A DNA stretch of 10,588 bases from a virus (lineage: Duplodnaviria; Heunggongvirae; Uroviricota; Caudoviricetes): IMG/VR virus record IMGVR_UViG_2657244943_000008, positions 1 to 10,588 of that record; one strand, written 5' to 3'. Within the stretch, counting starts at the first letter, position 1. The number at the start of each line of letters is the position of its first letter. A program made the translations under genes and the position numbers. The notes beneath the pieces are model-generated. The model was not told the origin of the DNA. It saw only the letters and a program-made list of their open reading frames with translations, and made no database searches. Below are positions 528 to 10,588 of the stretch, piece after piece.

Positions 528-878
528 TTACGCCGCTGCAATCTTCAGCAGTTTGATGGCCTGCGAATCGACCAGCATCCCGCCGGTGCGCTTGGTGGTA
601 TAAAAACCGACAAACGGTTTATTGGTGTACGGGTCACGCAGAATGCGGGTGCCGATACGGTCAACGATGGTGTAACCCCGTTTGAAGTTACCAAATGCAA
701 TGGCTTTCGCATCAGCGGCGATATCCGGCATCTGTTCGTTTTCAGCGATACCGTAACCCGCCAGAGAGGACGGCTGCCCCAGCTCCAGCCCCGGACGCCA
801 CAGATAGTTAACCGCCCATGACAGACAGACGATGATGCAGATAACCAGAGCGGAGATAATCGCGGTTAATCTGTTCAT
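528..878 (-). CDS. Rz-like inner-membrane protein (i-spanin-like N-terminal anchor with a divergent C-terminal domain)
   Basis: The ATG at 878 overlaps the TGA of the endolysin gene (ATGA), which is the lambda R/Rz arrangement. The first ~24 aa (MNRLTAIISALVICIIVCLSWAVN) closely match the lambda Rz N-terminal TM anchor as I recall it. The remaining ~90 aa (…GYGIAENEQMPDIAADAKAIAFGNFKRGYTIVDRIGTRILRDPYTNKPFVGFYTTKRTGGMLVDSQ…) do not resemble the Rz coiled-coil domain. Confidence 0.6.
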   Translation of the reverse strand: MNRLTAIISALVICIIVCLSWAVNYLWRPGLELGQPSSLAGYGIAENEQMPDIAADAKAIAFGNFKRGYTIVDRIGTRILRDPYTNKPFVGFYTTKRTGGMLVDSQAIKLLKIAAA

Positions 879-1351
879 ACCTCAATCTCTCTGACCATTC
901 CGCCCGCTTCTTTGAATTTTGCAATCAGGCTGTCAGCCTTATGCTCGAACTGACCATAACCAGCGCCCGGCAGTGAAGCCCAGATATTGCTGCAACGGTC
1001 GATAGCCTGACGAATATCACCGCGATCAATCATCGGTAAAGCGCCACGCTCTTTAATCTGTTGCAGTGCCACAGCGTCCTGGCTTTTCGGAGAGAAGTCT
1101 TTCAGGCCAAGCTGCTTGCGGTAAGCATCCCACCAGCGTGAAAGAAGTTGATAACGGCCTGCAGCTGTTGATTTGAGTTTCGGGTTTAGCGTGACAAGTT
1201 TGCGAGGGTGATCGGAGTAATCAGTGAAGAGTTCTCCACCGACAATAACGTCATAACCGTGGTTACGTGTCGGTTGTCGCCCGTTATCCGTTCCCTCTGA
1301 CCATGCCACCATATCCAGGAAAGCTTTACGCTGGGAATTTAGTACCTGCAT
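875..1351 (-). CDS. R: Endolysin, lambda R-type lytic transglycosylase (158 aa)
   Basis: Translation MQVLNSQRKAFLDMVAWSEGTDNGRQPTRNHGYDVIVGGELFTDYSDHP…REIEV is nearly identical over its full length to lambda gpR as I recall it (same 158-aa length, catalytic Glu in the WSEGT motif). A strong AAGGAG RBS lies 6 nt upstream of the ATG, inside the end of the holin gene. Confidence 0.92.
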   Translation of the reverse strand: MQVLNSQRKAFLDMVAWSEGTDNGRQPTRNHGYDVIVGGELFTDYSDHPRKLVTLNPKLKSTAAGRYQLLSRWWDAYRKQLGLKDFSPKSQDAVALQQIKERGALPMIDRGDIRQAIDRCSNIWASLPGAGYGQFEHKADSLIAKFKEAGGMVREIEV

Positions 1352-1354
1352 AAA

Positions 1355-1681
1355 TTACTCCTTAGAGCCACCAAACTTGTTACCGATTACTCTCATTGCA
1401 GCCCCACGAATAGCATCAACACCGATCAGCCCCACCCCACCACCAATGGCAACAGATAGTGATTTAGGCCATCCGACATACTCAAGAGCGGATGCAAAAG
1501 TCAGCGTCAGAGCGCCACAGAGTAGAATTTCGAGTGTTTTTCGCTTCCAGCCGCCACCACCGCCAAAATAGGCAATACGTAAACCAGCCATAACAATCGA
1601 CATAATCACTGCGCCCAGCGGTGTGTCTCCACGCCACCAGCTCTGGACCAACTCCAGCCATGTATTTGGGTTATGAGGCAT
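1355..1681 (-). CDS. S: Holin, class I with three predicted TM segments (108 aa)
   Basis: Sits immediately upstream of the endolysin on the same strand. Three hydrophobic stretches (GAVIMSIVMAGLRIAYF, LEILLCGALTLTFASALEYV, LSVAIGGGVGLIGVDAI) and a charged C-terminus, the same architecture as lambda S. GAGGTGAGAG lies upstream of the ATG at 1681. Sequence similarity to lambda S is modest. Confidence 0.75.
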   Translation of the reverse strand: MPHNPNTWLELVQSWWRGDTPLGAVIMSIVMAGLRIAYFGGGGGWKRKTLEILLCGALTLTFASALEYVGWPKSLSVAIGGGVGLIGVDAIRGAAMRVIGNKFGGSKE

Positions 1682-1822: not shown

Positions 1823-1855
1823 CAGAAACGACAAAACCCGCTCGATGGCGGGTTT
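1823..1855 (-). terminator. Intrinsic-terminator-like hairpin oriented on the minus strand (possible tR'-like late-operon terminator)
   Basis: Plus strand shows AAACCCG-ctcgatgg-CGGGTTT at 1834-1855. On the minus strand the stem is followed by TTTTGTCGTTTCT. It lies ~150 bp upstream of the holin start, at the boundary between ~50% GC phage DNA and the AT-rich cassette. Confidence 0.45.
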
Positions 1856-1900
1856 AAGCTGTGTGGCGAAGTAAGCACACTTAACAGATTACGATATTTT

Positions 1901-1929
1901 TTGCGTACGCGTTAGTGTTTTGATAGAAT
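1901..1929 (+). promoter_or_regulatory. Sigma70-like promoter for the two-gene cassette (TTGCGT, 17 bp spacer, TG-n-TAGAAT extended -10)
   Basis: -35 TTGCGT at 1901-1906, 17-bp spacer, TG at 1921-1922, -10 TAGAAT at 1924-1929. This would give a ~37-nt leader to the ATG at 1973, which has GGGA 6 nt upstream. Motif match only, no experimental support. Confidence 0.45.
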
Positions 1930-1972
1930 TTTCAGCCACATAAAAATTCATTCTTATAATTCGGGATATATA

Positions 1973-3148
1973 ATGGATATAACTTGTTTAGAATGTGGCA
2001 ATGTTCTTGACGACCCAACTGTAGCTTGCGATAAATGCGGTGCCACGCCTCATGTTGTAGTGCTGGGCAAACAATCGTACTTTCCTATTGGTGCTGTAAC
2101 AGCAAATCTTGAAAAAAATGATTCAAGAGCATTTGATTATCGATTAGGTGAAGTTTGGGATCTAAAAAATGAAGTCACATCTGAATTCATAACCAGAATT
2201 GAGAAAAAATTTAGCCGAAAAAACAAATTTCATAACTTCCTAGACTCAGATCACAACCCTTCATCCATTCCTACGATCCTAAAAAAATACATTAATAAAA
2301 ATAATGAATTCATTGATTTATCTAGAGCTATAATAGAGAAGCTTAAACATAATGCTAATAACGAATCGAGAGTTGCCCAACTTCAGGGGGGGAGCGTTGT
2401 TTTCATCCACTATAAGTCTACCGAACCAGAGGATTTGGGGAAACTTCTAATCGTAATGGTTGATAAACAAAGCGCCTATGACTTTGATTCGGATAAGTTG
2501 ACCCCAACAAGATTAAATCCAATTAATACCGATGCCTTACGGCAGGCTGCGATGTTCGATTTAACTTTATTCGAAGCCAGTTATCCAGAAAACAAGGGTG
2601 ACTCATATGTACATTTCTTGCAAGGTAAATCTAAAAGCGATTTTTTCAAAGACTCATTAGGTTGCCGACATGATTCGGACAATAAAAGAAGCATTCAGCA
2701 ATTATTCAGTGCTATAGATATTTTTGCTAGTAAAAACTCACTCGGTCGTGTACTGCGTGATACTATTGACAATGAAGTTAAATCCTTACTGGAAAAAAAA
2801 TCAAAAGATAAACACGGAAATAAGTCCGTTAAGATAGAGGATATTTCAAAAATAATTGACTCATGCCTGACTGATTCACACAAATGTAAGGGAACGTTTG
2901 TCGATTTTGTTAATCTTAATGGTTTCCAGATTGACCCTCAATTTGAACCAACTCCTAAAGCAGCTGAAAGCGCGCTTACAATTGAAGTGGCAGATAACGA
3001 CAATAATTTTAAGTTGAAAATAATGCGTGGAGCTATTGGAGACGAAAAGTCAAATAAGCCTGTAATTCTCACTGACAACAAATGCGAAATTGTGATAAAA
3101 TTGAGTCAGGCAAATTATGATGAACTCAAAAGATATAGAGACAGCTAA
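1973..3148 (+). CDS. Zinc-ribbon plus NdpA/YejK-like nucleoid-associated-domain protein (391 aa); cassette gene 1
   Basis: N-terminal CxxC…CxxC (CLECGN…CDKCG). The central and C-terminal region aligns by eye to E. coli YejK/NdpA as I recall it: GGSVVFIHYKS…LLIVMVDKQ versus GGIVLFCHYRY…LLVAVLNN, and YVHFLQGKSKSDFFKDSLG versus [22 protein letters not shown]. About 30% GC against ~50% in flanking phage genes. Confidence 0.6.
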   Translation: MDITCLECGNVLDDPTVACDKCGATPHVVVLGKQSYFPIGAVTANLEKNDSRAFDYRLGEVWDLKNEVTSEFITRIEKKFSRKNKFHNFLDSDHNPSSIPTILKKYINKNNEFIDLSRAIIEKLKHNANNESRVAQLQGGSVVFIHYKSTEPEDLGKLLIVMVDKQSAYDFDSDKLTPTRLNPINTDALRQAAMFDLTLFEASYPENKGDSYVHFLQGKSKSDFFKDSLGCRHDSDNKRSIQQLFSAIDIFASKNSLGRVLRDTIDNEVKSLLEKKSKDKHGNKSVKIEDISKIIDSCLTDSHKCKGTFVDFVNLNGFQIDPQFEPTPKAAESALTIEVADNDNNFKLKIMRGAIGDEKSNKPVILTDNKCEIVIKLSQANYDELKRYRDS

Positions 3149-3150
3149 TA

Positions 3151-4365
3151 ATGACAATTGCTGATGACTTATCAAGATTAGCGCAGATTATTAACGGAGC
3201 CTCAAGCAGAGTTGAGGGCTACTACACTGTCATAACTCTTGAAGAAAGCATTGTTATTGTAAATAGTTCTGAAATAATTAGACTGTTACAATCTATAGGT
3301 TATAAAAAGGCAACAACCTGCATCGAAAATAATGAAATTTGGCTAGATCGCCAAGCTTCATCTTGGGATGATGCTATAATTTATGAGAATGTTGAGTCTT
3401 TTTGGTCTAGAGTAAACACCCAAAACGCTCTTCCGAAAAATTATATCATCGGAACGCCGTTAATACTCCCTACTTCTAAGAATGAAAGCATCGAAAAAAT
3501 CCATATTTTCTTTATGTGGAAAGATATCCTTTCATTAATTTCTGATCATCATAACAGTGACTGCTCTGTCTTATTTTTCACCAATGAAGACAAAAGTTAT
3601 ACAGTCGAACTCACGCATTTTTTACAATATAGCGAGATTAATCGCTTATCGAACTCGTCTCTTAAATATGAAATTATAAAGGAGCTTCTCGACACAATAA
3701 AAATCAATGATTTACACAAAAGCGAGCGCAAGCTCGTTATACGCTCAGCCATAAACGAAGTATTTAAAGCAAATGGTACGTTCAATTTCTTTGACTTGCT
3801 TAACTCTACTGAACTCGTCAGGAAAAAATATGATGAACTATATGAGATTTACACAAAGAGGTTTTCTGTAAATAAAATTCTTAACGAACTCGATGAGAAA
3901 AATCTTGAGTTCACGAGTAAAATTAACGAATTCATATCATCTAATCAGACAAAAGCATTGACTATTCCCGGTGCATTAATAGCAGCTGGTGGCTTAGTGA
4001 AGGCTAATGAAACAACCGAAGCAATATTGATTATCGCAGGACTTTGGATGATAAAAAAAGTCAATTACATTTCTATTGAGATATTCAATGAAACATTCGA
4101 CAACTTACGTTCTCGAGTGGAGTCCGCTTTCGATAAGTATTTAAAGTTTGAAGAAAATAAAGAAATCAAAGATAATGCAGATAGTATTAAGAGTAGCATT
4201 ACAGGTTTGATTGATAAAGCTAAAAAAAGGATGAGAACTGTTAAATATCTCGCATCAGCCATGTTTTATGGAGGCCTTATTTACGTTGGATATAAACAGT
4301 TCCCAGTCTTTTTTGAAAAATCGGCAGTAAATCTATTTTATTTTTTATGCCATACTATAAGCTAA
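3151..4365 (+). CDS. Hypothetical protein with C-terminal hydrophobic (membrane-anchoring) segments (404 aa); cassette gene 2
   Basis: ATG at 3151 is 2 nt after the gene-1 TAA (TAATAATG), indicating translational coupling. The N-terminal ~260 aa are soluble with no motif I recognise. The C-terminal part has hydrophobic stretches ALTIPGALIAAGGLV, AILIIAGLWMI and VKYLASAMFYGGLIYVGY. Its 3' end overlaps the Q gene convergently by 21 nt. AT-rich. Confidence 0.6.
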   Translation: MTIADDLSRLAQIINGASSRVEGYYTVITLEESIVIVNSSEIIRLLQSIGYKKATTCIENNEIWLDRQASSWDDAIIYENVESFWSRVNTQNALPKNYIIGTPLILPTSKNESIEKIHIFFMWKDILSLISDHHNSDCSVLFFTNEDKSYTVELTHFLQYSEINRLSNSSLKYEIIKELLDTIKINDLHKSERKLVIRSAINEVFKANGTFNFFDLLNSTELVRKKYDELYEIYTKRFSVNKILNELDEKNLEFTSKINEFISSNQTKALTIPGALIAAGGLVKANETTEAILIIAGLWMIKKVNYISIEIFNETFDNLRSRVESAFDKYLKFEENKEIKDNADSIKSSITGLIDKAKKRMRTVKYLASAMFYGGLIYVGYKQFPVFFEKSAVNLFYFLCHTIS

Positions 4366-4701
4366 CATTGCTAAACAGCCATCAACAAACCCCATTGCAG
4401 TTTGCAGTTCCTTCCTAATTGTGCCATCAGAGCATTTTCTCTTCTTCGCAATAGTGCGTAATGAGATACCGATAACAAAGTGGGCGATGATGAGCTCATA
4501 TTCATCTGGTTTATACCTTCTCAACCGAGCCACACAACTGTCTATCATGATGCCTTCGTCATCATCACACTGAATCCGTGACTTTTTGCCATGAGGTAAA
4601 AGTCCCTTGAAACCAGCCGCTATCGGCTGCCAGTCCACTCCGCTATTGTCTGAAGCAGCCCAAGCTCCCCAACGATCCATTACTTCATACATATCACGCA
4701 T
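4345..4701 (-). CDS. Q: Late-gene antiterminator Q, short QuuD-like family (118 aa from the ATG at 4701)
   Basis: Translation [35 protein letters not shown]…CDDD… resembles DLP12 QuuD as I recall it ([35 protein letters not shown]…CDDD…). The track ORF begins at a TTG at 4716; the ATG at 4701 with GGAGAAAG upstream is the more likely start. Confidence 0.8.
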   Translation of the reverse strand: [118 protein letters not shown]

Positions 4702-4887
4702 CAACTTTCTCCACAAAATCAGGCCAGCACACCAATTGCCAGCGCACGATCGATAAGACCAGGGACAATTACTGACTCTTGCCGGTGAGCCTGACGGAAA
4801 ACTCCGCGCAGCAGGTCATTAATATCGTTCTTAATTAACTGATTATTTATCTCATCACTGAATATCTTTATATAGTGAGGACTTATT

Positions 4888-5712
4888 ATGTCTCAGAACT
4901 TAGACGCAACCGCAATTAATCAAATCCATGCCCTTATTTCTGCTCAGGGTGTTAATGAAATTATCAGTAAGATTGGTGCCGACGCAGTGGCATTACCTGA
5001 AAATTTCCGCATTCATGATCTGGAAAAATTTAATTTAAATCGCTTCCGTTTCCGTGGCGCGCTTTCCACTGCCTGCATCGATGACTTTATCCGTTATTCT
5101 AAAGATCTTGCAGATGAAGGCACCCGCTGCTTTATCGATGCCGATAATATGCGTGCCGTCAGTGTTCTTAACCTGGGTACTATTGATGAACCAGGTCACG
5201 CAGATAATACCGCCACTCTCAAACTGAAAAAGACAGCACCGTTCTCTGCACTGTTGTCTGTTAACGGCGAGCGTAACTCCCAGAAGTCACTGGCAGAATG
5301 GATTGAAGACTGGGCCGACTACCTTGTGGGCTTTGATGCTAATGGTGACGCCATTCAGGCAACAAAAGCGGCTGCGGCAGTCCGTAAAATCACAATTGAA
5401 GCGAACCAGACTGCTGATTTTGAAGACAATGACTTCAGCGGCAAACGCTCCCTGATGGAGTCTGTCGAAGCGAAGACCAAAGACATTATGCCAGTGGCAT
5501 TTGAATTTAAATGCGTTCCGTTTGAAGGTCTGAAAGAACGTTCTTTTAAATTACGCCTCAGCATTATCACTGGCGATCGTCCTGTACTTGTTCTGCGCAT
5601 TATTCAGCTGGAGGCTGTGCAGGAAGAAATGGCTAACGAATTTCGCGATCTGCTTGTTGAGAAATTCAAAGACAGCAAAGTAGAAACCTTTATTGGTACT
5701 TTCACCGCCTGA
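4888..5712 (+). CDS. yfdQ: DUF2303-family prophage protein, YfdQ-like (274 aa)
   Basis: Length and N-terminus ([14 protein letters not shown]…) match my recollection of E. coli CPS-53 YfdQ. It is followed by a YfdR-like HD-domain gene, as in CPS-53. GAGG RBS 8 nt upstream. Function unknown. Confidence 0.6.
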
Positions 5713-5724
5713 TTTGATTACTGC

Positions 5725-5747
5725 AAATGCCCCTGCGGGGGCATTTA
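5725..5747 (+). terminator. Hairpin AAATGCCCC-tgc-GGGGCATTT followed by AT, between the yfdQ-like and yfdR-like genes
   Basis: 9-bp perfect inverted repeat with a 3-nt loop, 13 nt after the yfdQ-like stop. The U-tract is short (ATTTAT), so it may be a partial terminator or attenuator. Confidence 0.4.
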
Positions 5748-5840
5748 TGGAAACGTAATTAACTCAATAATCGCCGGATGGTGAGGGCTTCCTTTTACCA
5801 GAATTCAGTGCGGTGCAGCGCAAATAACGTGGAGAACAAA

Positions 5841-6377
5841 ATGTCATTTATTAAAACTTTTTCTGGGAAGCATTTTTATTATGACAGGATAAATAAAGAC
5901 GACATCGTTATTAACGATATCGCGGTTTCCCTTTCAAATATCTGTCGCTTTGCAGGACATCTTTCACACTTCTACAGCGTCGCCCAACATGCGGTGCTTT
6001 GCAGCCAGTTGGTGCCGCAGGAATTTGCTTTTGAAGCGTTAATGCATGATGCAACAGAAGCATATTGCCAGGATATCCCCGCACCACTGAAACAACTTCT
6101 TCCTGACTATAAACGGATGGAAGAAAAAATAGACGCCGTAATCCGTGAGAAATACGGGTTACCTCCTGTTATGAGCACGCCTGTGAAATATGCCGATCTC
6201 ATTATGTTGGCAACCGAGCGTCGCGATCTCGGGCTTGATGATGGCTCTTTCTGGCCTGTGCTGGAAGGTATCCCGGCAACAGATATGTTCAAAGTTATTC
6301 CACTGGCACCGGGCCATGCCTACGGGATGTTTTTGGCACGCTTTAAAGAGTTACATACGATACATAAACAATCCTGA
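5841..6377 (+). CDS. yfdR: HD-domain phosphohydrolase, YfdR-like 5'-deoxynucleotidase (178 aa from the ATG at 5841)
   Basis: H…HD motif (HLSHFYSVAQHAVL…ALMHDATEAY) typical of the HD superfamily. The ATG at 5841 has GGAG 8 nt upstream and gives 178 aa, matching the YfdR length I recall. The track ORF starts earlier at 5778 without an RBS. Confidence 0.7.
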   Translation: MSFIKTFSGKHFYYDRINKDDIVINDIAVSLSNICRFAGHLSHFYSVAQHAVLCSQLVPQEFAFEALMHDATEAYCQDIPAPLKQLLPDYKRMEEKIDAVIREKYGLPPVMSTPVKYADLIMLATERRDLGLDDGSFWPVLEGIPATDMFKVIPLAPGHAYGMFLARFKELHTIHKQS

Positions 6378-6432
6378 CAGTGAAATTAACCAGTGAAATA
6401 GTTTTGTAGCAAAAGAAATGAGGTTATCAAAA

Positions 6433-6678
6433 ATGCTTCAAATGCTGACACTTGAAGAATGGGCTTCTGAAAAATACAGAAGTAATCCTCCAAGTGTGTC
6501 CACATTGCGTCGTTATGCTAAGCAGAATTTATTTTGTCCACCGGCCATGAAACAAGGCCGGTTATGGCGAGTGCGTGAGGACGCCGAGTTAGTTGGAGAG
6601 CTGGTAACACCAGTAATTAAGAAAAATGACTCATTACTTTTGCAACGGATTTTGAGTGATGGCAGCCAGACCGCGTAA
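6433..6678 (+). CDS. xis: Excisionase, lambda Xis-like (81 aa from the ATG at 6433)
   Basis: MLQMLTLEEWASEKYRSNPPSVSTLRRYAKQNLFCPPAMKQGRLWRV parallels lambda Xis (…LTLQEW…RSLETVRRW…FPPPVKDGREY…). GAGG lies 9 nt upstream of the ATG at 6433; the alternative start at 6418 has no RBS. Overlaps the int start by 20 nt as in lambda. Confidence 0.75.
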   Translation: MLQMLTLEEWASEKYRSNPPSVSTLRRYAKQNLFCPPAMKQGRLWRVREDAELVGELVTPVIKKNDSLLLQRILSDGSQTA

Positions 6679-7786
6679 AAATAATGTTTCGGTCCCTAAC
6701 TTATATCCGCTTTATAGTAGGAAAGTAAATAAAGTCTATTGGCGGTATAAGCATCCAGTAACAGGGAAATTTCATGCGCTAGGAACGAACGAAACCGAAG
6801 CCATCGCTATTGCCACTGAAGCCAATACGCGACTGGCTGAACAAAGAACTCGGCAGATTCTGGCCATCAGTGACAGGATAGCAACCAGCAAAGGGAAAGC
6901 AATCACAACGTCAACCTGGTTAGATCGCTACCAAGCGATCCAGGATGACCGACTGAAAAGTGGTGATATAAGACTCAACACTTATAAGCAGAAAGCCAAA
7001 CCAGTATCCTTACTTAGGGAACGAGTAGGAATGAAGTTGATCTCAGCCGTTGATGTCAGAGATATAGCACAATTGCTTGACGAGTATATCGCTGCCGGGC
7101 AGCCGAGAATGGCGCAAGTCGTAAGGTCTGTATTGATCGATGTATTTAAGGAAGCACAGCATTATGGCGAAGTTCCGCCAGGGTATAACCCTGCTCTTGC
7201 GACGAAGCAACCCAGACGGAAAATCACCCGTCAACGCCTCAGCCTCGAAGAATGGAAAAAAATCTTCGATATCGCAGATGCCAGTCATCGTTACATGGGA
7301 AATGCCATGCTCCTAGCATTGGTCACTGGACAGCGTTTGGGGGACATATCTAAAATGAAATTCAGCGATATTTGGGATGACCATCTACATGTCGAACAGG
7401 AAAAGACTGGAAGCAAAATCGCAATTCCTCTTTCTCTTCGCCTCAATACGATTAACTGGAGTTTACGCGATATAATAGCCCGCTGCCGTGACTATGCAGT
7501 CAGTCCATACCTAGTGCATTTTTTCCGTTCAACTTCACAAGCAGAACGTGGGGCACAGGTTAAATCCAATACATTGACGATGAACTTTAGCAAAGCGCGA
7601 GACTTGGCCGGAATTGATTGGGGTGATGGAACTCCAGCAACTTTCCATGAACAAAGATCTTTATCTGAGCGCCTTTATAGGGAACAAGGGATTGATACGC
7701 AAAAACTACTCGGACATAAATCTCCTAATCAGACAGCTAGATATCATGATGATCGTGGAAAAGATTGGGTAACTCTAGCAATTTGA
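6659..7786 (+). CDS. int: Tyrosine integrase, lambda Int family (375 aa from the ATG at 6659)
   Basis: Full-length similarity to lambda Int as I recall it, including the catalytic signature: R in LALVTGQRLGD, H-x-x-R in FHEQRSLSERLY, and H plus Y in LLGHKSPNQTARYHDDRG. The track start at 6656 is a GTG; the adjacent ATG at 6659 is more likely. Confidence 0.92.
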   Translation: MAARPRKNNVSVPNLYPLYSRKVNKVYWRYKHPVTGKFHALGTNETEAIAIATEANTRLAEQRTRQILAISDRIATSKGKAITTSTWLDRYQAIQDDRLKSGDIRLNTYKQKAKPVSLLRERVGMKLISAVDVRDIAQLLDEYIAAGQPRMAQVVRSVLIDVFKEAQHYGEVPPGYNPALATKQPRRKITRQRLSLEEWKKIFDIADASHRYMGNAMLLALVTGQRLGDISKMKFSDIWDDHLHVEQEKTGSKIAIPLSLRLNTINWSLRDIIARCRDYAVSPYLVHFFRSTSQAERGAQVKSNTLTMNFSKARDLAGIDWGDGTPATFHEQRSLSERLYREQGIDTQKLLGHKSPNQTARYHDDRGKDWVTLAI

Positions 7787-7920: not shown

Positions 7921-8886
7921 TCATTTCTTAAATTTAAGAATTTCTTTTAAGGCTTCTACTATATTTTTATCCCCATCCATGCTAATTTTCTCCTTCTCAA
8001 GAGAAACCGTAGTCTGCCCTTTTTCAAGAACAAAATTACGTTCTGTAGCCATGAGATTTTTAATAACCTCACCCATTAAGTCTTCGTTTCTAATGCCCTT
8101 AAGAAACTTTATCGCCAAAACTTTGGAATCGATATTGGTAAGCTCATTTTGAAAATACTTGACCTCATCAAAACCATTTTTGTACAACTTCAAGAAGAAA
8201 TAAGCAAATAGTTCAACGACAATTACAAATGATAATTTGGGGGCCATGTGAAGTATATATTCAAGCTTATCATTTGTGTTAATAGCATTTGTAACTGAAT
8301 ATCCAAGGTAAAGTATCCCACCAAAAGCAATAAATGCACCTAAAACCAGATTAACCCCACCACGTCTATTTAATCTATTTATTTCATTTTCTAAACGATA
8401 TACAATATCATTATAGTGTTTACTAATTTCTATTTGATTTCTAAACGAATTTATATCATTTTTCAAACTTAAATCTGCAGCCAAGAGAGTATTGCCTACA
8501 ATCTTTTTTTTAGCATTATCGATCAACTCTTGCCTTTCTTTTGATGTGAGTAAAACACCATTTAAATCTTTCGAATCATTTGTAACTAGTTGATTAAACT
8601 CTTGCTTTAAGGAGTCTAATTCTGACTTTAACTCTTCATATGAGTTAACATTCTTGTTTTTACTTTCACCTATTCCTTTATTAACATAATTTAATAAAAA
8701 TGCTGCCATAAAAGTTAAAATCAGAGTTGCAATAAAGAAACTATTTTCATCTTGAAGTATTTTAGCAACAGTGGAAAAATAACTTACGAGAAGAGGCTGA
8801 GCATTATAAAGCCCCATTCCTAACAAAACTGCAATTGCCGTACCTAAAACGAACCTTACTTCTTGTCTTTTTAGTAACCTATTCAT
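7921..8886 (-). CDS. Four-TM membrane protein with central coiled-coil and C-terminal soluble region (321 aa); candidate membrane effector
   Basis: Hydrophobic segments VRFVLGTAIAVLLGMGLY, FFIATLILTFMAAFLLNYV, VNLVLGAFIAFGGILYLGY and LSFVIVVELFAYFFLKLY. The linker between TM2 and TM3 (ELKSELDSLKQEFNQL…RLENEINRLNRR) is heptad-like. About 28% GC. Weak GGTG RBS. No confident family assignment. Confidence 0.6.
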   Translation of the reverse strand: MNRLLKRQEVRFVLGTAIAVLLGMGLYNAQPLLVSYFSTVAKILQDENSFFIATLILTFMAAFLLNYVNKGIGESKNKNVNSYEELKSELDSLKQEFNQLVTNDSKDLNGVLLTSKERQELIDNAKKKIVGNTLLAADLSLKNDINSFRNQIEISKHYNDIVYRLENEINRLNRRGGVNLVLGAFIAFGGILYLGYSVTNAINTNDKLEYILHMAPKLSFVIVVELFAYFFLKLYKNGFDEVKYFQNELTNIDSKVLAIKFLKGIRNEDLMGEVIKNLMATERNFVLEKGQTTVSLEKEKISMDGDKNIVEALKEILKFKK

Positions 8887-8970
8887 TATGACACCATATG
8901 TTATTATTTAACGTTTTATTAAATTCAAAATACTGCCCGAGATTTTAATACTCATAACAAAATAAGAATT

Positions 8971-9000
8971 AATATACAAAATTTTTCATACTACAAGCAA
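8971..9000 (-). promoter_or_regulatory. Candidate sigma70 promoter for the 4-TM gene (minus strand: TTGCTT, 18 bp spacer, TATATT)
   Basis: Minus-strand -35 TTGCTT (plus 8995-9000) and -10 TATATT (plus 8971-8976) with an 18-bp spacer, about 85 nt upstream of the ATG at 8886. AT-rich context, so motif matches are weak evidence. Confidence 0.3.
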
Positions 9001-9004
9001 GGCT

Positions 9005-9090
9005 TTGATAAATTGTTTTGATAACGATTTGATAACCGTTAGAAATCTAATAATAAAAACGGGAGCCATCAGACTTCCGTTTTTGATAAC
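9005..9090. repeat. Four direct copies of TTGATAA(C) upstream of the 4-TM gene promoter
   Basis: TTGATAA at 9005-9011, TTGATAAC at 9018-9025, 9029-9036 and 9083-9090; the middle pair is spaced 11 bp (one helical turn). One copy on the minus strand reads tATCAAatcgTTA, matching the IHF WATCAANNNNTTR consensus. Possible operator or architectural sites. Confidence 0.4.
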
Positions 9091-9448
9091 CCGGAGCCTA
9101 GATTTGGCTACCCCAGCAGGAAGATGCAACGTCCACGATTGTCACAAATCAGGCTGGCTCGAGGCAGAATGGCGACTGTGAGGGAGAAACGAAAGTTCAC
9201 ACTCGTTCTCACTGCTGATGGGGGGTTCACTAACAATCTCAAGCACTAATTAATGGACGAAACTCTACACAAAGCCCCATTTTGTAGGAAAACTGGTAAC
9301 GGATTAGTAATACTACCCGGCCAGAACATGACCGACCGGGTAAAAAAATATCCTGACGCTACTAAGCCTTTAAGATTTGACTAACCTAGTGCTTACATTA
9401 TAGAGAACTGCTTATGCCTTCTAAATTATAGAGTAAAAATACTCACCA

Positions 9449-10588
9449 CTAAAATACAACTTGCTTCCTTAGTAAATCACCTCTAGCATTTGAGTAATAT
9501 TCAGTCGAATTGCCAGTAACTTCCCGGAGTACTTCTGTTACAAGGTTATTTAGTATTCCCGTAAGTTTAAGAAACTCTCCATATGAATTAGGTTTCTCAA
9601 ATATCTTTCTGGTACCGTTCGGCACATCGAGCTGCATTGCAGCATCATGATCCTGGGCTAAGTGATTTAGCCAGCGGTGAGTCTCAACAAGTACAGCAAG
9701 TTCATAGTATGTACTATGACGGAGATTATTAGCATCTGCATGGTACATTAGTGAAGCAATATCATAGCTGCTTAGATCAATACTCGAACCTTCGTCTCCA
9801 CTGTCTGCTTTCAGGGTTTTGAGCATGCGAATTGATTTTCTTAATCCACCATTGCATTGATCGCATTTGTCTTTGATACGTTGCATGTGGAGGAACGGTT
9901 CATTGTAGATACGCTCTCGTTTGTTTTTATCAATTATGGTAACTCCACGATGTTCTTCTTTTTTTGTGAGTTGGTACTCTTTCGTATCCCACCATATGCC
10001 TGGCACTACATCAACTTCTCTTTGAAGACTCCCCCCCGTTATTCTCAAGGACTTGGCGTTATTATCGTCAACCTGAGCAGCAGGAAATGTCATTTTTAGA
10101 GCATCTCGAGCTGCACGCCTAAGTTCAATGATGACGTCTCGGCCATCTTTCTCAGCTGCACTATAGCTGCCAACTCCACCGCTATCATACATAAGCATCT
10201 GAGTATCAATAATTAAAAGATCTACATCACTGAAACCTTTGATATGGATATCTAGGGGAACAGAACCTTGTACCCGAAAATCTAGGTTTAGGTCTAATTT
10301 CTTAGTCAGCTGATTTTCAATACGATACGCGGTTTCGAATGAGATCTCTGTATAGCGGGGGTCAACTGGTTGCATCGCACCAATGACATACCGGATAGCT
10401 GAATCGTCTCTTCCTCTAGACTCCCAACTTTCATTAAGCTCAAGAGCATCTTCAAGCAATGCATATTTTTCAAGGCCATCATATCTTTGATTACTCATTG
10501 ATTCTGTGGCTACTCGCAACTGATCATATGTCCCTTTACGACGTGACTTCATGCGTTCAATACGCGAACTATATGATGAATTAGACAT
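9449..10588 (-). CDS. Pol-beta-superfamily nucleotidyltransferase with cGAS/DncV-like (CD-NTase/SMODS-like) active-site motifs (at least 379 aa; start at the window edge)
   Basis: GS…D-x-D motif (RVQGSVPLDIHIKGFSDVDLLII) and a downstream third acidic motif REVDVVPG, resembling the [DE]hDhhP of OAS/cGAS/DncV-type enzymes. About 42-48% GC. The ATG coincides with the last base of the window, so the true N-terminus may lie further upstream. Confidence 0.55.
   Translation of the reverse strand: MSNSSYSSRIERMKSRRKGTYDQLRVATESMSNQRYDGLEKYALLEDALELNESWESRGRDDSAIRYVIGAMQPVDPRYTEISFETAYRIENQLTKKLDLNLDFRVQGSVPLDIHIKGFSDVDLLIIDTQMLMYDSGGVGSYSAAEKDGRDVIIELRRAARDALKMTFPAAQVDDNNAKSLRITGGSLQREVDVVPGIWWDTKEYQLTKKEEHRGVTIIDKNKRERIYNEPFLHMQRIKDKCDQCNGGLRKSIRMLKTLKADSGDEGSSIDLSSYDIASLMYHADANNLRHSTYYELAVLVETHRWLNHLAQDHDAAMQLDVPNGTRKIFEKPNSYGEFLKLTGILNNLVTEVLREVTGNSTEYYSNARGDLLRKQVVF

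Follow-up and report, generated by a model that had tools for sequence, protein, structure and literature searches.

The AT-rich two-gene cassette lying between the antiterminator gene Q and the lysis genes in the window (the whole stretch of 10,588 nt analysed here) is, with near certainty, DS-1, an anti-phage system of two genes that lambdoid prophages carry as a moron. The element that hosts it is an e14-like prophage at icd. Our whole explanation, a DS-1 defence moron inserted between Q and a conserved flanking block and acting by a release mechanism of the PANGU type, has in our estimate a probability of about 0.75. The genes and the block that define the cassette are listed here, in window positions.

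1355-1681, minus strand: lambda-family holin gene, first gene of the lysis cassette and boundary of the slot (Pfam PF05106, E 5.7e-25)
1826-1930, minus strand: conserved lysis-side flanking block (alignment with SfII, Stx2a_1447, PhiR49_2 and TUM1226)
1973-3148, plus strand: DS-1A gene, 391 aa, product identical to WP_000355468.1
3151-4365, plus strand: DS-1B gene, 404 aa, WP_057108764.1, anti-phage effector candidate
4345-4716, minus strand: antiterminator Q (Pfam PF06530, E 4.4e-47; the RefSeq start is 4701)

Identity of the cassette and published phage resistance

Identification rests on both proteins. DS-1A shows 0 differences from WP_000355468.1 (100% identity), and DS-1B shares 402 of 404 residues with WP_000150292.1, the two differences, T29S and S131A, both being conservative. 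These two accessions form the transcription unit "D390", which is DS-1 (DefensePredictor, Science 2026, Tables S6 and S11). Cloned with its native promoter on a low-copy plasmid, D390 protects E. coli MG1655 (DefensePredictor, Science 2026). The -log EOP values for DS-1 are 7.6 for Bas1, 2.7 for Bas26, 1.7 for both Bas3 and T3, 1.0 for T5 and 0.9 for T7, and the rows of the table that were examined include none for T4 (DefensePredictor Table S7, Science 2026). The text of that study gives no mechanism for the system (DefensePredictor, Science 2026).

An earlier note on this DNA had proposed a defence module with a sensor-plus-effector logic, and the publication of a near-identical allele as protecting E. 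coli supports this. Its description of the module as uncharacterised and matching no named system is outdated; the system is DS-1, with NCBIfam equivalog models, and newer RefSeq names are 'nucleoid-associated anti-phage protein' for A and 'anti-phage protein' for B. A search of PADLOC-DB v2.0.0 (2023), a check that the note had suggested, returned 0 families at E <= 0.1 for DS-1A and DS-1B; this library predates DS-1. The cassette is therefore no novelty, having been described and tested under the name DS-1: a defence moron was correctly picked from raw sequence, and independent validation of that cassette came in 2025-2026.

Layout, composition and boundaries

Both reading frames lie on the plus strand between the holin and Q genes on the minus strand, in line with the antisense arrangement first noticed in the interval between Q and the lysis genes. 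The gap of 2 nt claimed between them is correct as well: the junction reads gacagcTAAtaATGaca, that is TAATAATG with a 2-nt spacer. DS-1A stands upstream of DS-1B on the same strand with a TAAtaATG junction, which is the transcription-unit layout of DS-1, and the two genes are translationally close-coupled. The 3' ends of DS-1B and Q converge and overlap by 21 nt.

Composition and edges had to be revised. The GC content, put at about 30% by the earlier note, is 34.6% when computed, against 51.7% in the left and 44.7% in the right flank. Instead of breaks near 1885 and 4345, alignments with phages place the homology-defined boundaries at about 1931 and about 4366; the cassette is bordered by the stop codon of Q on one side and by a conserved block of roughly 100 bp (about 1826-1930) on the other. 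Inside this block a terminator scan found, on the late strand, a hairpin resembling a terminator (1855..1834). Phage PhiR49_2, which has no cassette, carries the block immediately after Q. Presumably the block is the late-promoter/terminator region found behind Q where phages lack the cassette; a promoter-consensus search did not place pR' within it. Megablast matches to phages were confined to Q and the flanking block. The Rfam scan of the window gave no RNA family in or adjoining the cassette, and the window contains no tRNAs.

The consensus scan for a cassette promoter returned the following elements.

1920-1960, plus strand: candidate promoter, -35 TTGATA (1920-1925), 16-nt spacer, -10 AAAAAT (1942-1947)
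1955-1960, plus strand: alternative -10 TATAAT
1963-1966, plus strand: GGGA Shine-Dalgarno sequence

Consensus matches to the sigma70-like promoter assigned to the cassette earlier do exist, but such matches (12 found) are not more frequent than in shuffles (10.8 expected). We infer promoter function from the published native-promoter clone and not from the sequence. The promoter region flanking the cassette is identical to that of intact prophages in the phage alignment.

DS-1A, a YejK-like protein with a zinc ribbon

Two parts can be distinguished in DS-1A.

1985-2038, plus strand: CxxC-x10-CxxC zinc-ribbon motif, DS-1A residues 5-22 (sequence)
2162-3100, plus strand: NA37 (YejK-like) core, DS-1A residues 64-376 (Pfam PF04245, E 1.2e-23)

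The motif together with the NA37 (NdpA/YejK) match bears out the view of the first gene as encoding a zinc-ribbon/NdpA-like protein. DS-1A matches NCBIfam NF053868 (DS1_1_antiphage) with 451.4 bits (cut-off 330, E 2.1e-135) over profile positions 3-369 of 369, and a profile of its family finds 9be2_A in the PDB (E 1.4e-20). A housekeeping YejK/NdpA is ruled out, as DS-1A reaches only 81.4 bits against NF001557, whose cut-off is 341. The zinc-ribbon region of the DS-1A model has a low pLDDT of 54-68. In the family alignment its four cysteines are found in enterobacterial homologues and in a small number of others; those of the Pseudomonas type carry an acidic tail in place of the ribbon. DS-1A is a nucleoid-associated protein of the YejK fold, to which a zinc ribbon is added at the N terminus.

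DS-1B, a predicted membrane protein

For DS-1B, the family alignment and an AF2 model (pLDDT 85.3) outline an alpha/beta domain at the N terminus and long helices behind it.

3151-3810, plus strand: N-terminal alpha/beta domain, DS-1B residues 1-220 (AF2 secondary structure)
3826-4002, plus strand: most conserved core, DS-1B residues 226-284, KKYDELYEIYTKRFSVNKILNELDEKNLEFTSKINEFISSNQTKALTIPGALIAAGGLVK (invariant or near-invariant alignment columns)
3949-4077, plus strand: hydrophobic helical hairpin, DS-1B residues 267-309, predicted membrane segment
4237-4308, plus strand: C-terminal hydrophobic helix, DS-1B residues 363-386, predicted membrane segment

DS-1B covers all of NCBIfam NF053869 (DS1_2_antiphage; 375.3 bits, cut-off 315, E 2.7e-112, profile 1-337 of 337) and matches phrog_5023. 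Searches with DS-1B gave no match in Pfam, none in the PDB by sequence-profile comparison and none by tblastn in 50,697 deposited phage genomes. The N-terminal domain is moderately acidic (net charge -8, pI 5.2), and each of the 34 family members has a negative charge there, ranging from -1 to -19. The hairpin, modelled as helices 271-284 and 288-331, attains a family-averaged Kyte-Doolittle hydropathy of up to 2.02, and the C-terminal helix averages 1.82. In the window's own copy the best 19-residue hydropathy is 1.56, below the usual threshold for transmembrane segments, while other family members reach 1.8-2.6. These conserved hydrophobic segments agree with the earlier suggestion that the second protein is membrane-anchored. 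DS-1B combines an acidic N-terminal alpha/beta domain with a helical core that is invariant and with hydrophobic helices that are conserved.

Distribution of the gene pair

The question of conserved co-occurrence, raised in the earlier note, has a clear answer. All eight distant contexts that were examined have the order A then B, as do 17 additional pairs located on one contig each. An NA37 gene directly precedes the B homologue in Pseudoteredinibacter, Pseudoalteromonas, Serratia, Yersinia, P. aeruginosa and two metagenome contigs. Across the 17 same-contig pairs the identities of A and of B to the window correlate with r = 0.99. In the loci examined, A and B always occur together, in this order, and diverge in step. 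AbiEii, AAA_21, BstA_C and integrases are neighbours of the homologous pairs.

The E. coli copies are all prophage-borne (106/106) and at least 99% identical, and in some strains IS insertions break the cassette while the prophage is retained. In SfII the same slot next to Q is occupied by the PADLOC candidate system PDC-M53. The phages compared hold three different cassettes between Q and the late-promoter block, one of them still unannotated, and antisense defence cassettes of two genes may quite generally be exchanged at this slot.

Proposed mechanism and alternative explanations

A mechanism can be proposed by analogy with type II PANGU, a bicistronic operon of E. coli that encodes the YejK-like NAP Pag2A and the membrane effector Pag2B (bioRxiv 10.64898/2026.04.06.716658). 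In PANGU-Ecu both genes are needed, neither single gene nor the pair is toxic, the phenotype is abortive infection, and T4 escapes via denA mutations; T4 is restricted, T1 and T5 are not (bioRxiv 10.64898/2026.04.06.716658). Pag2A-GFP leaves the nucleoid upon infection and the acidic N-terminal domain of Pag2B binds Pag2A with a KD of 19 nM (bioRxiv 10.64898/2026.04.06.716658). In the model of that preprint (April 2026), degradation of host DNA by the phage sets the nucleoid-bound sensor free, which then switches on the membrane effector and leads to abortive infection. A zinc ribbon of Pag2A is not mentioned, the word 'zinc' occurring 0 times in the PANGU text (bioRxiv 10.64898/2026.04.06.716658).

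Transferred to DS-1, DS-1A would be bound to chromosomal DNA in uninfected cells and would be freed upon breakdown of the host chromosome by an incoming phage. Free DS-1A would then bind the acidic, putatively DNA-mimicking N-terminal domain of membrane-bound DS-1B, and DS-1B activated in this way would damage the membrane, so that the infected cell ceases to support phage growth (abortive infection). It seems plausible, and by our estimate slightly better than an even bet, that DS-1 works by such a combination of nucleoid release and membrane effector.

A different trigger has to be weighed against this. DS-1A might sense a phage component directly instead of the loss of host DNA, be it phage DNA, on entry or during replication, or a protein by which the phage attacks nucleoid proteins, with the enterobacterial zinc ribbon adding specificity. 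Two observations speak for such direct sensing: the DS-1 spectrum in Table S7 (Bas1 strongest, then Bas26, T3, T5 and T7) is unlike that of PANGU-Ecu, which acts on T4 but not on T1 and T5, and the CxxC-x10-CxxC extension of DS-1A is absent from many homologues and unmentioned in the PANGU text. However, T3, T7 and T5 are known to degrade host DNA, and therefore the spectrum is also compatible with sensing of genome damage. The ribbon is moreover dispensable across the family, since Pseudomonas-type pairs lacking it keep the same partner, and expression was unequal between the two studies, DS-1 having been driven by its native promoter on a low-copy plasmid and PANGU-Ecu by IPTG induction. Taken together, we regard direct sensing as unlikely, at something like one chance in five. 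Somewhat less probable still is that DS-1 is not simply a type II PANGU and that its zinc-ribbon sensor answers to a cue other than genome degradation of the EndoII type, which would explain why the T1-like Bas1 and T3/T7 are blocked rather than T4. Here placement may matter too. DS-1 comes right after Q, to which it is convergent, and before the late-promoter block: read-through from the early operon at induction could silence DS-1, and the prophage would thereby avoid triggering its own abortive-infection module.

Two further readings give the cassette a different main role or none. The pair could mainly serve the prophage itself, as a moron for nucleoid modulation or lysogeny maintenance or as an addiction module of the toxin-antitoxin kind, with resistance a side effect of expression from a plasmid. 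Its position in a prophage regulatory region, antisense to phage transcription and converging on the 3' end of Q, would suit this, as would the exclusively prophage-borne, highly identical copies in E. coli. Yet homologous pairs extend beyond Q slots into integrase and defence islands near AbiEii, AAA_21 and BstA_C, resistance was seen from the native promoter at low copy, and prophages with IS-disrupted cassettes are not lost. Further, PANGU-Ecu, which matches the architecture, is non-toxic as single genes or as a pair (bioRxiv 10.64898/2026.04.06.716658). On this published non-toxicity and the genomic context we reject a toxin-antitoxin or addiction module, and we consider service to the prophage as the main role very improbable. 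We attach next to no weight to the idea that the composition shift and reading frames are a chance feature or a decayed, functionless remnant. The host prophage is indeed degraded: it lacks morphogenesis genes, and at 528-878 it has an Rz-capsid fusion pseudogene. Both reading frames are nevertheless intact and full length, their products are identical or nearly identical to the tested proteins, and the flanking promoter region is that of intact prophages; the intact frames and the identity to a functional allele refute a functionless remnant.

Comparison with known systems

The published DS-1 is the closest relative. Gene order, spacing and prophage slot are the same in other E. coli genomes, while the copy in the window resides in a degraded e14-like element and not in a complete lambdoid prophage. 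To E. coli YejK/NdpA (PDB 9be2) DS-1A is related by domain; it differs in the added N-terminal zinc ribbon, in being encoded on AT-rich, horizontally acquired DNA and in being always partnered with DS-1B.

Lambda RexAB offers a parallel in organization. It is a two-gene abortive-infection module expressed from a prophage in the lysogen, in which RexA is the cytoplasmic DNA-binding sensor and RexB the membrane effector. It differs from DS-1 in its locus, the immunity region, and in its proposed trigger, and we know of no relationship between the two in sequence or fold.

Type I PANGU consists of the NAP Pag1A and the GRel toxSAS Pag1B (bioRxiv 10.64898/2026.04.06.716658). It shares the YejK-like class of sensor and the principle of a freed NAP capturing the acidic DNA-mimic domain of the effector. 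Its effector, in contrast, is a soluble alarmone synthetase and not a membrane protein, and has no homology to DS-1B. In type II PANGU, compared by its published description, a YejK-like gene is likewise followed by the gene of an effector whose N-terminal domain is acidic and whose C-terminal part holds membrane helices. DS-1A corresponds to the YejK-like NAP sensor and DS-1B, as predicted, to the C-terminal transmembrane effector that characterize this type, and type II PANGU is the only experimental mechanistic model on offer for this architecture.

Results

The cassette consists of two long plus-strand ORFs, here called gene A and gene B, that sit between the holin and antiterminator genes of the minus strand:

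875-1351, minus strand: GH24 lysozyme, a lysis gene
1355-1681, minus strand: lambda-family holin, bounding the cassette on the lysis side
1855..1834, late (minus) strand: terminator-like hairpin
1973-3148, plus strand: gene A, ORF of 391 aa, Pfam NA37 (YejK/NdpA family), E 1.2e-23
3151-4365, plus strand: gene B, ORF of 404 aa, NCBIfam NF053869
4345-4716, minus strand: antiterminator Q, PF06530

The two genes meet at a junction reading TAAtaATG. The ORFs and Pfam matches bear out the layout proposed in the earlier note, a two-gene AT-rich cassette lying antisense between Q and the lysis genes. A drop in GC against the flanks is also present (51.7% left flank, 34.6% cassette, 44.7% right flank), although the cassette itself had been put at ~30%.

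Both proteins can be assigned to a named anti-phage system. Gene A scores 451.4 bits against the NCBIfam equivalog NF053868 DS1_1_antiphage (cut-off 330) and gene B 375.3 bits against NF053869 DS1_2_antiphage (cut-off 315), while no Pfam or PADLOC match was found for gene B. These models explain why newer RefSeq annotations of complete E. coli genomes, retrieved by megablast, call the product of gene A a "nucleoid-associated anti-phage protein" and that of gene B an "anti-phage protein". A full-text search traced the name DS-1 to DefensePredictor (Science 2026, PMC13092281; bioRxiv January 2025), where transcription unit D390 is DS-1 and comprises WP_000355468.1 and WP_000150292.1 (Tables S6, S11; PMC13092281). 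Gene A is identical to the former, and gene B differs from the latter by two residues, T29S and S131A. In that study, MG1655 carried D390 and its native promoter on a low-copy plasmid (PMC13092281). Table S7 gives -log(EOP) values of 7.6 for Bas1, 2.7 for Bas26, 1.7 for Bas3, 1.7 for T3, 1.0 for T5 and 0.9 for T7; in several cases the plaques were also smaller (PMC13092281).

Alignment of the flanks with SfII, Stx2a_1447, PhiR49_2 and one intact E. coli prophage places the ends of homology at ~1931 (left) and ~4366 (right), a few tens of bases away from the boundaries suggested earlier. In the cassette-free PhiR49_2, a conserved block of ~100 bp directly follows the Q stop codon, whereas in the window this block is found at ~1826-1930, between the lysis genes and the cassette, and the terminator-like hairpin is inside it. 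Hence, the cassette lies between Q and the block. The block is presumably the late promoter/terminator region, in which case late transcripts would not traverse the cassette and antisense transcription would come only from Q read-through.

Co-occurrence of the pair in other genomes, one of the checks proposed for the cassette, was confirmed in all loci examined. We inspected B homologues (27-38% identity) from Pseudoteredinibacter, Pseudoalteromonas, Serratia and Yersinia, together with a B-like protein of P. aeruginosa (hhalign E 2.5e-55) and two more remote homologues from metagenomes, and an NA37 gene is immediately upstream of every one, often with an overlap of 4-17 nt. In 17 further A/B pairs on shared contigs the identities to the window correlate (r = 0.99), with B ~9 points more diverged than A. 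Neighbouring genes include AbiEii, AAA_21, BstA_C, integrases and recombinases. In P. aeruginosa, the pair (386-aa NA37 protein and 425-aa B homologue, 17-nt overlap; 5001-7422 of loci L013-L015) directly adjoins Pf-type filamentous prophage genes (Zot, DUF2523), so that a DS-1-like system also moves with, or next to, inoviruses.

An exhaustive profile search gave 767 clusters at 50% identity (E <= 1e-3). Among complete E. coli genomes, 106 of 5,426 carry the cassette, in 107 copies of which one is on a plasmid, all at least 99% identical (window 1973-4344). PHROGs families exist for both proteins (phrog_3767, phrog_5023), and tblastn found no homologue of the gene B product in 50,697 deposited phage genomes; the carriers are prophages never deposited as isolated phages. 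In E. coli H4 (NZ_CP182203.1) ISKpn26 lies inside the matched region, and in H54 (NZ_OZ547033.1) IS1 cuts the gene for the nucleoid-associated protein in two, each part with its own annotation, which suggests that DS-1 is occasionally inactivated by IS insertions in some strains.

Further features belong to the surrounding e14-like element:

528-878, minus strand: chimeric ORF, Rz-like N-terminus fused in frame to a major capsid C-terminus (Pfam Phage_capsid, E 3e-27)
7921-8886, minus strand: 321-aa protein, AT-rich, three clear TM segments, phrog_5157
8936-9091, plus strand: sub-threshold Rfam match to the Hfq-binding sRNA STnc150 (40.7 bits, gathering score 60, E 7e-6)
9449-10588, minus strand: CD-NTase, PADLOC Cyclase PDLC00772, E 6e-137

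RefSeq annotates the chimeric ORF as two pseudogene fragments. A deletion has cost the prophage the whole stretch from spanin to capsid gene, which leaves it defective. The interval from intE to icd contains a CBASS operon (window 7921-10588; 16147-19433 of the annotated record L016), with a Cap15-family receptor (RefSeq annotation) just past the window end. The 321-aa protein had no Pfam, PADLOC or NCBIfam match, and the STnc150-like match is intergenic, between its gene and the cyclase gene. This small element bears three defence functions: CBASS, mcrA and DS-1.

Discussion

The cassette is real, and the guess that it serves in defence was correct, since its proteins are identical to, or two residues away from, those of an experimentally validated system. 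It is not new, because DS-1 has already been described, validated and named and has its own NCBIfam models, and the label "uncharacterised" does not hold.

The same Q-adjacent slot holds further two-gene cassettes in the same orientation in SfII and Stx2a_1447. SfII_50/49 (L003 2768-4382) matches a PADLOC candidate, PDC-M53A/B (E 2e-32 and 3e-54). Stx2a_1447_24/23 (L002 1630-3193; 343 and 179 aa) had no match in any library searched, and this pair, shared with WGPS2, could be an undescribed defence cassette; its 179-aa protein is membrane-like. In Yersinia, a DS-1 pair (DS-1B at 38% identity) is found between Q and holin in another lambdoid phage. The slot next to Q may serve as a hotspot.

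In its main text, DefensePredictor newly ties the "YejK nucleoid-associated domain" to defence and presents DS-1 without a proposed mechanism (PMC13092281). A preprint of April 2026 on PANGU, anti-phage systems based on nucleoid-associated proteins (NAPs), describes a YejK-like NAP as infection sensor; in type II this NAP, Pag2A, is partnered with Pag2B, and the type was tested with a system from an E. coli strain, PANGU-Ecu (10.64898/2026.04.06.716658). Pag2B has an acidic N-terminal "DNA-mimicking" domain, which binds Pag2A with a KD of 19 nM, and a C-terminal transmembrane domain. Both genes are required, no construct was toxic, cultures show abortive-infection behaviour, Pag2A-GFP departs from the nucleoid upon infection, T4 escapes through mutations in denA (EndoII), and the authors state that how Pag2B is activated is not known (10.64898/2026.04.06.716658). 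DS-1 has the same architecture, and by this architectural analogy the type II model is the likeliest one for DS-1 too. The two phage spectra are not alike: T4 is restricted by PANGU-Ecu while T1 and T5 are not (10.64898/2026.04.06.716658), whereas DS-1 acts most strongly on Bas1, with no T4 entry in the rows of Table S7 examined.
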